From: an uncultured Actinomycetota bacterium
GTDB taxonomy: Bacteria; Actinomycetota; Thermoleophilia; RBG-16-64-13
Assembly: GCA_963790415.1 (NCBI GenBank)
Contig: CAWBOK010000001.1
Span: 770,545-834,544 of the forward strand
Direction: 5' to 3'
Length of the DNA stretch: 64,000 nucleotides
Below, piece after piece: positions 30,040 through 42,029 of this stretch (within the stretch, counting starts at the first letter, position 1; each line of letters starts with the position of its first letter). The position numbers and the translations under genes were made by a program. A model generated the notes under the pieces. That model did not search any database, was not told the DNA's origin, and saw nothing but the letters and a program-made list of their open reading frames with translations.

Positions 30040-30136
30040 CGCACTGACGGACCCTCGGCGAGACCGTTCCGATAATTAACTGACTGACCAACCAATAACG
30101 CGAGCAGCGTACCACACCGACCGACGAGGCGCCAGC

Positions 30137-30165
30137 AGGTTGTTGAAGAATGGGGCTCCGCCGCC
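30137..30165. repeat. partial copy of the dispersed repeat (right-end variant)
   Basis: AGGTTGTTGAAGAATGGGGCTCCGCC versus the reverse complement of 39981-40005, AGGCTGTTGAAGAATGGCGCTTCGCC (22/26 by hand count). Confidence 0.4.
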
Positions 30166-30210
30166 GGGCTACGCTGGGTATGCGCAGGCGCGAGGGCACC
30201 GCGGCGTGCG

Positions 30211-32135: not shown

Positions 32136-32305
32136 GTCCCTCTGGGTCGTCGCGGGCAGAGGTCAGGTGATGGTGTCGGTGCCGATCCCCTCATACCAAA
32201 GCCTAGTGTACGCGGGTCGCCCGCGCAAGGAAACAAGTCTTCGGATCCCCGTGGTAGTCTCCCGAGTCAACCGACGGCAATCAACACATGGCTTTCTCCG
32301 ACCCG

Positions 32306-33034
32306 TCATCCGTGCGCGATGTTGATGGCACGCGCGACGAGCATGGCCGCGATGCCGAACGAGAGCAGGCTCTCGGTCCCCATCACGAGCTTAGCCCGCT
32401 TCGTGTAGGGCATCGTGTCGGTGGGCGAGAACGCGATCGCGCTGGTGAGCGACACGAATAGATAGTCGGGGAAGGTGGGTTTCCAGTCGGCCGCCGCGAG
32501 TCCCTGCTGGTCCTCTTGTTGCTGGGGAAAGACGAGGTCGGGGTAGGCCTGGCATGCGTCGGCGCGGGCCTCAGGTCCGCCGCCGTCGAGTTCCCAGTAT
32601 GCGAGGGCAAAGACGGCCACATTGACGACCCAGAGCGCAGCGCCCGCAAACAGCAGGCCCGGCGGGCTGAGCCGTGACCCGATGAAGACCCCGCGCACGA
32701 GCAGCACGAGGCTGACCACGTTAGCGATGACGAGCACGGCCACCAGCCCGAGGGAGAGCACGCGCAAGGCTCTTTCCGGCTCGGACCGAGACGGTATGTA
32801 GACAGCCACCGAGGCCAGCAGAAGGATCCCGGCTACGGTCGGATACAGCCAGACCGGCCGCAACGACAGGCTGGTCGCCACCCACGTCTGGCCCGCGATG
32901 ATGATGACCACCGCCGCGAACGCCGGCCACCGGGATTCTGGTTCGGTGACACGTTGCCACGACGGCACAGCAGCGCCTGCGGGCCCTCTCACCCGTGGGT
33001 CGTTCGCGCCGTCATGATGCGGCCTATCGGCCAT
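32306..33034 (-). CDS. DUF1345-family membrane protein
   Basis: 242 aa with 5-6 TM segments. FALAYWELDGGGP...FPDYLFVSLTSAIAFSPTDT motif. Confidence 0.7.
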   Translation of the reverse strand: MADRPHHDGANDPRVRGPAGAAVPSWQRVTEPESRWPAFAAVVIIIAGQTWVATSLSLRPVWLYPTVAGILLLASVAVYIPSRSEPERALRVLSLGLVAVLVIANVVSLVLLVRGVFIGSRLSPPGLLFAGAALWVVNVAVFALAYWELDGGGPEARADACQAYPDLVFPQQQEDQQGLAAADWKPTFPDYLFVSLTSAIAFSPTDTMPYTKRAKLVMGTESLLSFGIAAMLVARAINIAHG

Positions 33035-38376: not shown

Positions 38377-38553
38377 AGCGCGCCTCTCCTGATTTGGCGG
38401 GTTCCTGCCATTCTTCTCATCATACCGGCTGAACCTGCCGTGTGCTCCACGAAACGCGGAGCTGTAACCCTCGGCGACGTAGGTCTTCCCCTTACCTGAT
38501 TTTCACGCCGCACGAGCGCGCGCTTGACAGTTCGGAACCGCGACCCGGCCGAC

Positions 38554-39831
38554 TCAGAACCGCGCGAAATCCTCGATATCCTCTTCGAACTCGCGCACCA
38601 TCCCCCGGGAGAGCGTCGGCCGCACCTCCGAGATAGCACGCAGGAAGTCCTCGGTATCCGCGATTGCCCCCGATTCCCCGAACACGGCCCGCTCGAACGC
38701 GAACTGAGCCGCCTTGCGGGCGGCGAACTCCATGTCGGCCGGGGTGAAGAGTGCGCTGGCTTCTACCAGAGCGTCGAGATCGACCTCGGCGGCGGTGATG
38801 CCCTCGACGTAGCGTTCCCATATCGACCGGCGCGCCTGGTCATCGGGGGGACCGATCGGCAACAGGTGGTCGAACCGGCCGGGCCGCAGGAACGCCGAGT
38901 CCAGGGTGCGGATCGAGTTCGTAGCGCAGATGAGAAGCCGGTTCGGGTGGCCCCGGAAGACCGGGATCGCCTTCAGCAACTCGTTCGTCACCGCTTGGGA
39001 GACGGGCGCGTCGTCGCGGCTCTGGGCGATCTCCTCCACCTCGTCGATGAACACCACGGCGGCGTCGATCTCGGCCAGACGGTGGAAGAACATCCGCAGT
39101 TCATGGGCCTGCCCGTCCCGCCCTCCGGCGGCAAGCCGGCTGGGGAAGAGTTCGATGAACGGCCAGTCCAAACGAGAAGCGATCCCCTTGGCAAATGTCG
39201 TCTTGCCGGTCCCCGGCGGTCCGAAGAGCACGATGGCCTTGGGCGGCTGGACGCCGTGATGCTCGGCGAGGCCGGGTTTCGCGAGGGGCAGGATGATCCG
39301 GCGCTCGATGAGCTGCTTCTCGCGGTCCATCCCTTTGAGCCGGTCCCACAGGCCGGTCGGCATCCGCTGCCCACCCAACTCGGCGAGAAGGTTGAGCTCG
39401 GCCGGTCTGGCGGGGAGGAACCGTTCGAAGTAGCTGACCTCGGGGCGGATGGTGAACCCATGGTCCAAGAAGAGCTGTTCCTCGACTTCTCCAGGTGGGA
39501 ACACGGCCGTGGTTTGCCGGACGCCCTTGTCGAGCAGCTCGCGATGGATGGCGTCGAGCAGACTGCTCCTCACCCCCCGCCGGCGCCAGGCCGGCGAGAC
39601 TGCCAGACGGAGGATCCACGCCCGGTCGCCGCTGACACGGCTGACCACAGTGCCGATCACCTGCCCCTCCACCACGGCCACCAGGGCCGGTTCGGCGGCG
39701 AGGATGGCGGCCACGACCTCCGCTATCCGAAAGAGCGGCGCCGATCCCTCGACGGTGGCTTCTTCCCATAGGTGCACTGCCTGATCTAAGTCGCTATCCT
39801 CAAAATCACGTATCTGCCAGATGGGTCGCAT
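38554..39831 (-). CDS. GNAT acetyltransferase - AAA+ ATPase fusion protein
   Basis: ATG at 39831. N-terminal GNAT (IRDFEDSDLDQAVHLWE...LAVSPAWRRRGV). C-terminal AAA+ domain with Walker A GPPGTGKT, Walker B VVFIDEVE and RPGRFD. Confidence 0.8.
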   Translation of the reverse strand: MRPIWQIRDFEDSDLDQAVHLWEEATVEGSAPLFRIAEVVAAILAAEPALVAVVEGQVIGTVVSRVSGDRAWILRLAVSPAWRRRGVRSSLLDAIHRELLDKGVRQTTAVFPPGEVEEQLFLDHGFTIRPEVSYFERFLPARPAELNLLAELGGQRMPTGLWDRLKGMDREKQLIERRIILPLAKPGLAEHHGVQPPKAIVLFGPPGTGKTTFAKGIASRLDWPFIELFPSRLAAGGRDGQAHELRMFFHRLAEIDAAVVFIDEVEEIAQSRDDAPVSQAVTNELLKAIPVFRGHPNRLLICATNSIRTLDSAFLRPGRFDHLLPIGPPDDQARRSIWERYVEGITAAEVDLDALVEASALFTPADMEFAARKAAQFAFERAVFGESGAIADTEDFLRAISEVRPTLSRGMVREFEEDIEDFARF

Positions 39832-39840
39832 GAGGGCCCC

Positions 39841-40011
39841 CTTAGGAGGCTGTTGAAGATCGAAGCCTTGGCCGCCAGAAGGCACTGGCCGGCGCGATAC
39901 GGTGTCCTCGGTCGCGCACGTAGCGCTGCTACGAGCTATCCTTGCGTCCTTGTCTCACGCTCAGCGCAAGCGCCCTGGTGGCGAAGCGCCATTCTTCAAC
40001 AGCCTGTTAGG
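39841..40011. repeat. MITE/REP-like element with imperfect terminal inverted repeats
   Basis: Left end TTAGGAGGCTGTTGAAGATCGAAGCCTTGGCCGCCAG. The right end reverse-complements to CCTAACAGGCTGTTGAAGAATGGCGCTTCGCCACCAG, sharing a 13-nt core AGGCTGTTGAAGA. The left 96 nt are repeated in inverted orientation at 40426-40520. Confidence 0.5.
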
Positions 40012-40201
40012 TCTGCTTCGTCGGCAAGCGGGGCAGTCTACCCCTTGGGGACGGCGGAGACCAATTCCGGGCCGGCGGCGTGCCACGGGCGGTCACGGGT
40101 GTGCGATACAATGCGACCGATTCACGGCAGCATCGTGATCGCCGCACGTGCATCGGGCGCCGCCGTGATAGTCGGCCCGGAATACGACGGAAGGGAGAAC
40201 C

Positions 40202-40354
40202 GTGGCAACGACCATCTACAAGAGCGGCGAGAAGCCCGGTGAGGGTGTCTACCGCTGCACAGCGTGCGGGCGGCGGGTCACGCTTCACGACGACGACGAG
40301 CCGCTCCCCCTCTGCGTGCAGTGCAGAGCGGACACCTGGATGAAGGTGAAGTAG
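40202..40354 (+). CDS. small zinc-ribbon protein (50 aa)
   Basis: GTG after GGAAGGGAGAA. VATTIYKSGEKPGEGVYRCTACGRRVTLHDDDEPLPLCVQCRADTWMKVK has two CxxC pairs. Too short for the ORF track. Confidence 0.5.
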   Translation: MATTIYKSGEKPGEGVYRCTACGRRVTLHDDDEPLPLCVQCRADTWMKVK

Positions 40355-40425
40355 AGCACGACTCCGCGCGCGCGGCCGACGACACTCTACTGTCCACCGC
40401 GAGCGAGCCAACACCGCCGCCCGCC

Positions 40426-40520
40426 GCTCGTAGCAACGCTACGCGCGAGACCGAGGACGCCGTATCGCGCCGGCCAGTGCGTTCTGGGAGCCAAGGCTTC
40501 GGTTATCAGCAGCCTCCTAG
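40426..40520. repeat. inverted copy of the left arm of the 39841-40011 element
   Basis: Hand alignment to the reverse complement of 39841-39936: 84 of 96 positions identical, including a 21-nt exact run CCGTATCGCGCCGGCCAGTGC. Confidence 0.6.
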
Positions 40521-40699
40521 TGCGTCAGCCATGAGATGAAGAAGTACAGGATCACACCGATGATGACGATCACAGTGCCGTACAATGCGATCGGTCCCAC
40601 GCAGCAGCCTGTCAACTGGTTCCGAGACTCCAACCAGGGCCAGGTCATTACCCGCCACGCGGGCCAATCCTGTTCGCGGTGCTGCTTTTCTTCGTTCAT
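40517..40699 (-). CDS. small membrane protein (about 60 aa)
   Basis: MNEEKQHREQDWPAWRV...GPIALYGTVIVIIGVILYFFISWLTH has a clear C-terminal TM helix. The competing plus-strand ORF 40536..40919 looks like its antisense shadow. Confidence 0.35.
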   Translation of the reverse strand: MNEEKQHREQDWPAWRVMTWPWLESRNQLTGCCVGPIALYGTVIVIIGVILYFFISWLTH

Positions 40700-40779
40700 G
40701 GGCCCAGTGAATGTCATCGGCTCTGGCAGGTCAGATTGCCCACATCGGAGGGCGTCAACCCGACGTGGCACCACCGGAG

Positions 40780-41397
40780 TCACCTCAAAGGATCCAGGGC
40801 GCGTGCGAGACCGACGAGTATCCCGGCGGTGGCTCCCCAAATACGGCGGCCCGGGTAGGGCAGGACGTAGAAGGTATGGAACTCGCCATCCCGAACGATG
40901 CTTTTGCGCTGATGGTTAGCCGGGTCGAGCACGAAACTCAGCGGCACTTGAAAGACGGAAGCCACCTCACGCGTTTCGAGCACGAACGCGACCGGCGGTT
41001 CGATCCAGCCCACGAACGGGAACACGAGGAAACCCGTGACGGTCTCGTAGGCAGGTAGGCACCCCAAGAGTTCCACCCTTTCTGGAGCCAGGCCGATCTC
41101 CTCAAAGGCCTCGCGCAGCGCCGCGGCCGCCGGCCCGGCATCACCTGCTTCGATCCGGCCTCCGGGCAGGCTGATCTCGGCCGCGTGGTCCTTCAGGTGA
41201 GCGGCCCGCTCGGTCAGGATGACGTGCGGACCTCCTGGGTGCGCAAGCAGCCCGATGAGGACGGCCGCGGGAATCCCCGCCAGAGACGACCCTGCACGCT
41301 CGGCCGGCCCGCACGCCGTCTGCAGCCGAACGCGCACCTCCTCACGGTTCACCGGCCGACTTCCAGATCGGCGCGGAACTCTGCCTTCGTGCATCAT
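40780..41397 (-). CDS. NUDIX hydrolase, CoA pyrophosphatase type
   Basis: Nudix box GGRIEAGDAGPAAAALREAFEEIGL, plus AAVLIGL...HVILTERAAHLKDHAAEISLPGG typical of the NudL/PCD1 group. Confidence 0.75.
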   Translation of the reverse strand: MMHEGRVPRRSGSRPVNREEVRVRLQTACGPAERAGSSLAGIPAAVLIGLLAHPGGPHVILTERAAHLKDHAAEISLPGGRIEAGDAGPAAAALREAFEEIGLAPERVELLGCLPAYETVTGFLVFPFVGWIEPPVAFVLETREVASVFQVPLSFVLDPANHQRKSIVRDGEFHTFYVLPYPGRRIWGATAGILVGLARALDPLR

Positions 41398-41493
41398 GGG
41401 CTAGAGGATAGCAAGCAGCAGCCTGTGCGGGGCTTCATACACCGCTCGAAGGGGAAGAATAGTAGTGCAACAAGATCAGAAACGGGGGACGCA

Positions 41494-41907
41494 ATGCTTG
41501 CCAAGTCCATGTTCTATCCCACGCTCCCGGCCTCGGACCTCGAACGGGCAAAACGCTTCTACGGCGATACGCTCGGCTTCCGCCTGATAGAGGGCACGGG
41601 GGATTCCGGCGGCGTGTTTTATCGCGTCGGCGATCAGGTTCTGTTCGTGTACAAGACAGCCACGCCGCGGGGTGGCAACACCGCACTCTCGTTCGTGGTC
41701 GATGACCTCGACGCCGAGATGACGGAGCTGCGCGCCAAGGGCGTCACGTTCGAGGAATACGACATGCCCGGTCTGAAAACCCAGAACGGCGTGGTCGAGT
41801 TCGATGGCATGCGGGGCGCGTGGTTCAAGGATTCAGAAGACAACATCCTGAGCATCCAGCAACCGTCGGCCGAGCAGGCCCGAGTGATGCGGGAAGCCTT
41901 GAAGTAG
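41494..41907 (+). CDS. VOC/glyoxalase family protein
   Basis: ATG at 41494. FYPTLPASDLERAKRFYGDTLGFRL...AWFKDSEDNILSI. Confidence 0.75.
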   Translation: MLAKSMFYPTLPASDLERAKRFYGDTLGFRLIEGTGDSGGVFYRVGDQVLFVYKTATPRGGNTALSFVVDDLDAEMTELRAKGVTFEEYDMPGLKTQNGVVEFDGMRGAWFKDSEDNILSIQQPSAEQARVMREALK

Positions 41908-41960
41908 GCTTCGCAGAGATCGTCAAGGTCGGCGAGCACTCACTGCACGCCGTCATGCCC

Positions 41961-41992
41961 CGCTCCGACGCCCCGCCCAAGGCGTCGGAGCG
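41961..41992. terminator. bidirectional terminator hairpin
   Basis: 12-bp stem CGCTCCGACGCC/GGCGTCGGAGCG with an 8-nt loop, between convergent genes. Confidence 0.65.
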
Positions 41993-41997
41993 CTTGG

Positions 41998-42029
41998 GGC
42001 CAAGGCTTCTTTCTTCACCAGCCTCCTAA
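41998..42029. repeat. 32-nt dispersed repeat copy
   Basis: GGCCAAGGCTTCTTTCTTCACCAGCCTCCTAA. Its last bases contain the TAG stop of the FMN reductase gene on the opposite strand. Confidence 0.5.

Follow-up and report, generated by a model that had tools for sequence, protein, structure and literature searches.

Palindromic MITEs such as the Correia elements of Neisseria, ERIC and the RUP-type elements are about 100–200 bp long, have long-hairpin potential and lie in dozens to hundreds of intergenic copies near gene ends, as full, deleted and nested variants. Correia elements duplicate TA. The repeat family analysed here shares size range, folding potential, copy number, intergenic placement near gene ends and variants with these elements, but has different termini and a different target, and a promoter and terminator consensus scan of positions 39700–40750 at this locus found nothing.

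A closer described system is MITEPsy1 of Pseudomonas syringae pv. phaseolicola, a 100-nt IS5-derived MITE that duplicates CTAG or YTAA (PMC3189936). Like MITEPsy1 (PMC3189936), our family is short, non-coding and multicopy, carries terminal inverted repeats (TIRs) matching an IS5-family insertion sequence, and is found at CTAG/YTAA-type sites with a 4-nt duplication. Unlike MITEPsy1 (PMC3189936), it is 161 bp rather than 100 bp long, unrelated in sequence and present at ~149 loci rather than 6; its host is an uncultured member of the Thermoleophilia/Gaiellales, its mobility is inferred from empty sites rather than experimental trapping, and its cognate insertion sequence was not found in its own genome. 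A literature search returned no published description of this repeat family, and a search for MITEs in Thermoleophilia found only matches concerning arthropod mites. The family is undescribed, its kind well known, and nothing here challenges the understanding of IS5-type MITEs. The two inverted arms that drew attention to this locus are very probably independent copies of such a MITE, one full-length and one a 5' half, with their geometry a by-product of where the copies came to lie. The locus is ordinary and its local geometry incidental.

Architecture of the locus

The window is a 64,000-nt stretch of an uncultured Actinomycetota bacterium (C1:770545–834544 of a 3.64-Mb assembly in 10 contigs, 66% G+C). 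Positions below are those of the window, and the features of the locus are as follows.

38554–39831, minus strand: gene for a GNAT–AAA+ fusion protein, 425 aa from ATG 39831 (ORF list, Pfam, orthologues); a neighbour, outside the element
39842–39845: left TTAG target-site duplication, repeated after the body at 40007–40010; empty alleles hold one short site
39846–40006, plus strand: full-length MITE body, 161 bp (64 full-length copies; orthologous site without the MITE in G001, L106 and L108)
39846–39859 and 39993–40006: TIRs of the MITE body, GAGGCTGTTGAAGA / TCTTCAACAGCCTG
39914–39936: central hairpin of the left MITE copy, GCGCACGTAGC-GCT-GCTACGAGC
40007–40010: right TTAG target-site duplication, matching the left TTAG
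40011–40201: native divergent intergenic region between the GNAT–AAA+ and zinc-ribbon genes, single-copy and collinear with the MITE-free contigs L106 and L108; contains a conserved GATACAAT box, with TACAAT at 40107–40112
40202–40354, plus strand: zinc-ribbon protein gene, 50 aa, two CxxC, DUF1451-type C-terminal ribbon (Pfam PF07295; homologues with intact frames)
40384–40425: synteny breakpoint and ~40 nt of filler, between the region downstream of the zinc-ribbon gene and the truncated MITE; L106/L108 homology stops near 40383, and the filler has no other match in the genome
40426–40516, minus strand: truncated MITE, 5' half only, consensus positions 1–96 (flanking CTAG 40517–40520 included), in the opposite orientation to the full copy
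40517–40520: CTAG target site at the outer end of the half-copy, holding the minus-strand TAG stop of the small membrane-protein gene
40517–40699, minus strand: small membrane-protein gene, 60 aa from ATG 40699, longest ORF to 40840; a neighbour, with a homologue in G002

A repeat search places the arms at 39826–39936 and 40426–40536, where 111 nt are 83% complementary across a spacing of 489 nt, as the preliminary description had given it. That description had also aligned the arms by hand, and global alignment of the reverse complement of 39841–39936 with 40426–40520 reproduces its result exactly: 84 of 96 columns are identical, with a longest exact run of 21. The 171-bp unit that it had delimited at 39841–40011, with imperfect TIRs, is real and consists of TTAG, the 161-bp body and TTAG. 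Its placement of the outer ends holds as well, the left end lying 10 nt from the confirmed GNAT–AAA+ start codon (ATG at 39831) and the right end on the stop codon of a small membrane ORF, since the CTAG at 40517–40520 contains that minus-strand TAG. Of the sequence between the arms, the first 75 nt belong to the 3' part of the full copy and are the only repeated portion; segment 40012–40425 is single-copy in the genome.

The ORF at 40202–40354, which had been described with two CxxC pairs, is present and encodes 50 aa from a GTG start. It matches Pfam PF07295 (DUF1451, zinc-ribbon-containing domain) with 34.4 bits against a cut-off of 26.1. An exact-sequence look-up of the protein gave no match; near-identical relatives came from homology search, with homologues at 94%, 87%, 76% and 71% identity, all with intact frames. 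The most distant of these (G009; 47 aa, 71% identical) overlaps the leuD stop. Third-position changes are visible in the alignment of the gene, and in the closer relatives the changes look mostly synonymous. The GATACAAT box lies ~90 nt upstream and is retained in each of the three alleles. The ORF is, on these comparisons, a real gene.

The protein encoded on the left is a GNAT acetyltransferase fused to an AAA+ ATPase (Pfam AAA, 1.8e-25; Acetyltransf_1, 1.6e-8), with orthologues in G001 (93%) and G005 (65%). In G005 (L052:1–2766) the gene follows ftsZ directly, 5 nt past its stop, and the window gene is away from that context. The 60-aa protein on the right, which is probably unannotated, carries a single transmembrane helix at its C terminus and a conserved motif, MTWPW...LTGCC. 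It has no Pfam match. Its homologue in G002 is MTWPWSASWNELTGCCAGRAALYAVAVLLVGVILYFFVSWLTR (MTWPW...ILYFFVSWLTR), and the small membrane-protein gene, too, is real. Annotation of this region should mask the repeat as a MITE family and call both the 50-aa zinc-ribbon and the 60-aa membrane-protein genes.

The repeat family and its target sites

The similarity of the arms is not due to chance. Elsewhere in the genome there are 64 full-length matches to the 171-nt unit, with E-values down to 1e-61; these lie on all 10 contigs, are 74–91% identical to the left copy and are accompanied by many partial copies. A search with the family consensus gives 186 matches at ~149 loci. These comprise 51 full-length loci with a single match, 33 multi-hit loci (composite or nested variants, and full copies with an additional match to their own opposite strand), 33 5'-terminal fragments, 20 3'-terminal fragments and 12 internal pieces; the full-length total of 64 is counted across these classes. 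The best copies are 92–97% identical to the consensus, CTAG|GAGGCTGTTGAAAATCGAAGCC ... GCGCACGTAGC-GCT-GCTACGAGCGC ... GCGTCACTCTTCAACAGCCTG|CTAG. The 161-bp body is short and has no transposase coding capacity, as expected of a MITE. Its termini have the form (G/C)AGGCTG(T/C)TGAA, extended to (G/C)AGGCTG(T/C)TGAA(A/G)A as 13–14-bp TIRs, and the two ends (GAGGCTGTTGAAGA and the reverse complement of the other, CAGGCTGTTGAAGA) match at 13 of 14 positions and are conserved across the 64 copies. The suggestion that the left arm is part of a MITE-like element, and the footprint of a mobile element, was thus right. An absence of further copies in the genome, which had been named as the finding that would overturn it, is decisively contradicted by the ~149 loci.

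Several variants of the family were observed. A ~335-bp composite (G000 C10:23477–23814; C1:634187–634521; C1:681749–682084; C1:313251–313590) carries a second element in the loop of the central hairpin of the first. The nested element has a related ~130-nt core and different ends, GGAACTCGCTCCAG...CTGGAGCGAGCTC. It occurs only inside the composite, which is itself multicopy (four full copies and truncated derivatives), so the composite seems to have spread as a unit. The window holds three further derivatives: a 32-nt 5'-end fragment at 41998–42029, ending on a CTAA that contains the TAG stop of the FMN-reductase gene (42026–42028); a mini-derivative of ~46 bp at 50529–50578, TTAG|AGGCTGCTGAAAACCGAAGCCTTGGCCACACTCTTCAGCAGCCTG|ATGG, which has both ends and no core; and a diverged 3'-end fragment at 30134–30185. 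A fixed truncation point for half-copies was considered and rejected, the ends of 5' fragments being scattered over positions 25–154 with a loose cluster at 80–96.

In most copies, the 4 nt at each end of the 161-bp body fit YTAR. CTAG dominates, then come TTAG and CTAA, and the right side often has a variant that departs from YTAR by one transition. A check for target-site duplications had been proposed, and in addition to these flanks it gave a perfect TTAG/TTAG pair around the left copy. The genome has 1,876 CTAG sites, a low density of 0.5 per kb against 6.9 per kb for GATC. For the empty-site comparison, the 150-nt flanks of 16 copies were joined with one 4-mer kept and searched in two congeneric genomes. 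In one of these (G001), the junction is spanned without a 160-nt insertion at ~10 of the 16 tested sites, two of which align over 300 of 300 nt at 90% identity. At one of the ~10 sites, G001 reads ...ATGCGGGACTAGTGCCGACC... and our genome ...ATGCGGGATTAG–MITE–CTAGTGCCGACC...; at a second, the corresponding sequences are ...CTCGACTAGAATGCC... and ...CTCGACTAG–MITE–TTAGAATGCC.... The single CTAG in G001, where our genome has YTAG–MITE–YTAG, shows a precise 4-bp target-site duplication. Together with the state of the present site, which is empty in G001 and in the metagenome contig L106, these comparisons establish presence/absence polymorphism.

For 23 of the 64 full-length copies (36%), an end coincides with the stop codon of a gene-like ORF; the figure for all other CTAG sites is 27%. 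A special preference for stop codons was therefore rejected, the association mostly tracking the occurrence of CTAG; that ends fall at gene boundaries reflects mainly the target sequence, plus the cost of insertion within genes. The presence of TAG on both strands of CTAG, combined with counter-selection inside genes, leaves copies at stop codons and in short intergenic spacers, and it is in this way that both arms come to adjoin gene boundaries.

An earlier proposal was that the arms are duplicated leader or small-RNA sequences. In such a reading, the 161-nt unit or its 5' half would form a structured RNA that acts on adjacent genes. The unit does fold strongly (–79.8 kcal/mol on the plus and –80.3 kcal/mol on the minus strand, z-scores –3.7 and –4.4), and copies often lie beside gene starts or ends. 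However, both strands fold equally, as a DNA palindrome does, and copies are found in either orientation, with no set distance from genes. Departures from the predicted pairs, with two fixed G–T positions excluded, are symmetric between G–U (35) and A–C (32), leaving no strand-specific signal of selection on an RNA. The Rfam scan that had been proposed as a check was run over 38500–42000 at E<=1 and left the feature without a match, its only hit being a chance CRISPR-DR56 match at 41769, outside the feature. A structured regulatory RNA would be recognized by a curated family match or by strand-specific covariation, and the unit has neither; the emptiness of ~10 of the 16 tested sites in a congener fits a transposon rather than a conserved regulator. 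The proposal is without support, and we consider an RNA function of this kind very improbable.

History of the two copies

The left copy is delimited by TTAG at 39842–39845 and 40007–40010, a perfect duplication around the body at 39846–40006, and its site is found in other states in relatives. In G001, the GNAT–AAA+ start region joins directly to the sequence on the right of the MITE, ...GAGGGCCCCC-TTGATAAGC-TTCGTCGGCGAACGG.... Two metagenome contigs, L106 and L108, encode zinc-ribbon proteins 94% and 87% identical to that of the window and keep the GNAT–AAA+/zinc-ribbon arrangement, repeat-free on both sides. In L106 the site is empty (CCCCC-TCGATATGC-TTCGTCGG), and the order is the GNAT–AAA+ start, the empty site, the same intergenic region, the zinc-ribbon gene and a DsrE-like gene. 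Empty sites at this locus have diverged, with 9–10 nt differing between relatives; the duplication is proved most cleanly at the other copies described above. On the evidence of these alleles, the divergent GNAT–AAA+/zinc-ribbon pair is shown to be older than the repeats.

The contig L108 carries a third allele. It reads CCCCC-TTAG-GAGGCTG-TTGG-GTATGC-TTCGTCGG, that is, the site with an 11-nt remnant that starts with the first 10 nt of the MITE. This stretch (L108:383–410) is orthologous to window 39842–40016 and holds the remnant at the exact insertion site. The remnant would fit a loss of 154 nt bordered by the direct repeats AGGCTGTT and AGCCTGTT of the element's two ends, or the excision footprint of a transposase. 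Contigs of a public sediment run contain a matching joint that jumps from 39849 to 40004, skipping 154 nt, with a microhomology of 5 nt. Excision footprints are known from the eukaryotic PIF/Harbinger relatives of IS5. At this one site, the TTAG duplication and the G001, L106 and L108 alleles thus document a filled, an empty and a footprint state, and the site can serve as a marker of recent transposon activity and of strain variation in this uncultured lineage.

In G001, a change of sequence occurs ~55 nt from the MITE site. Its contig C179 (L051:1405 onward, opposite window 40064) continues into a homologue of window 32301–32984 (82%) rather than into the zinc-ribbon gene. This is either a rearrangement of its own or a chimeric 5-kb contig.

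The right half-copy is 92% identical to consensus positions 1–96 (blastn) and 88% identical to the left copy, and its homology ends just past the central hairpin; it belongs to the 33 5'-terminal fragments counted above. Homology with L106 and L108 ends near 40383, after which the three sequences differ from one another; ~40 nt of unmatched sequence follow before the half-copy begins, so that its inner end lies ~40 nt beyond the breakpoint. At its outer end, the small membrane-protein homologue of G002 ends in TAA, without a MITE and with a different downstream gene, and in G005 a histidine kinase gene comes after the adjacent Nudix gene, with neither the small ORF nor a MITE. We infer that the stop codon of the small membrane protein was once the site of a full MITE copy, which later lost its 3' half by rearrangement. 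As CTAG is duplicated on insertion, the stop codon would have been preserved.

The outermost ends of the two copies are both 5' termini, inverted and flanked by TTAG and CTAG, an arrangement in which the 671-bp block 39846–40516 could have moved whole by means of two outward-facing 5' ends. Alternatively, the right arm could be a local copy of the left. A composite transposon would have carried its cargo with both ends and left one outer duplication, but here the outer flanks differ (TTAG and CTAG), and a perfect TTAG/TTAG duplication already brackets the left copy alone. The supposed cargo, comprising the intergenic region and zinc-ribbon gene, lies beside the GNAT–AAA+ gene in relatives that have neither arm; the middle segment is single-copy, and a second 671-bp block was not found in this genome. 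The two arms match the family consensus at 90 and 87 of 96 positions and each other at 84 of 96. Each is thus nearer to the consensus than to the other arm, which argues for independent descent from the family and against local duplication. Movement as a block, or local copying, is exceedingly improbable.

The arms had also been taken as possible borders of an invertible segment. In that case they would be recombination sites between which the 489-bp segment with the zinc-ribbon gene and its promoter flips as a switch. Inverted arms of ~95 nt with 88% identity, 489 bp apart, do surround a promoter-bearing small gene, and homologous recombination between them is physically possible. Switches of the Hin/Gin/Fim type, however, combine locus-specific repeats with a nearby recombinase. 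The arms belong instead to a repeat at ~149 loci, and the main ORFs at 35.6–43.7 kb (radical SAM, cupin, GNAT–AAA+, Nudix, glyoxalase, FMN reductase, RpiB and DUF1989) gave no recombinase, invertase or transposase domains. The present orientation is that of the repeat-free relatives, taken as ancestral, which indicates that no inversion has occurred. In public runs (Logan), which yielded short contigs only (best <=17% of sampled words), summed repeat depth is huge and no strand-switch joints were seen. The notion of an invertible segment finds no support in the spread of the repeat, the neighbouring ORFs or the relatives, and a switch at this locus is highly unlikely. Where Thermoleophilia MAGs show a small ORF between inverted repeats of this sort, a pair of MITE insertions is the best reading, not a switch.

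The events can be ordered as follows. The GNAT–AAA+ and zinc-ribbon genes already formed a divergent pair, as the repeat-free alleles show. An element inserted into TTAG 10 nt upstream of the GNAT–AAA+ start, as recorded by the duplication, the empty alleles and the footprint allele; another copy, as its position shows, occupies the CTAG in which the small membrane-protein gene has its stop codon. Subsequently, a rearrangement that had one of its ends within this right copy may have cost it the 3' half and brought the remainder next to the sequence downstream of the zinc-ribbon gene. We also considered a reading in which MITE copies actively shape the locus: the right copy would mark a MITE-associated rearrangement that replaced the DNA downstream of the zinc-ribbon gene, the 95-nt pair could still flip the 489-bp promoter-plus-gene segment by homologous recombination, and the L108 remnant would be a transposase footprint and not a deletion by replication slippage. 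This reading is unlikely.

Candidate mobilising elements and distribution

Relatives of this genome contain NF033581-type IS5-family transposases: G007 has ~10 identical copies, and further ones occur in G010 and G011. The G007 element, ~1.43 kb in length, reads TTAA|CAGGCTGCTGAAAAAG...CAGCGGCCTG|TTAA (right end also read TATTTCAGCGGCCTG), and that of G011, ~1.37 kb, reads CTAG|CAGGCTGCTGAAAAC...TTTTCAGCAGCC (also read CTAG|CAGGCTGCTGAAAACG...CCTTTTCAGCAGCC). These autonomous elements have ends that match those of the MITE. They share with it the termini CAGGCTGCTGAAAA, a 4-bp YTAR duplication (TTAA in G007) and the taxonomic family of their hosts, but differ from it in being ~1.4 kb long and transposase-coding, and in going undetected in the window's own genome. 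Similarity between MITE and insertion sequence is confined to ~14 terminal nucleotides. IS5-family elements with these termini are the likely mobilisers of the MITE.

The element is a 161-bp non-coding, strongly palindromic unit whose TIRs are the same as the IS5-family ends in related genomes. A transposase supplied in trans would cut at these TIRs and insert the element at YTAR, mostly at the rare CTAG, with duplication of 4 bp. A profile search of the window's own genome gave no NF033581 match and one weak PF01609 match. Mobilisation is thus either not current, or its source lies in the ~11% missing from the assembly. Inverted end pairs 1.6 kb apart in this genome were examined as a candidate autonomous element and proved to be two separate MITEs.

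The family is found in 14 of 31 related genomes. MAGs that share an exact 21-mer from its core are labelled Thermoleophilia, Gaiellales, Gaiellaceae, Solirubrobacteraceae and Actinomycetes. The same 21-mer is also present in one MAG labelled Christensenellales, a Firmicute (L085, JBMNUF010000007.1:3729–3749), a match that may reflect chance, binning contamination or transfer. The family is abundant in sediment and soil metagenomes.
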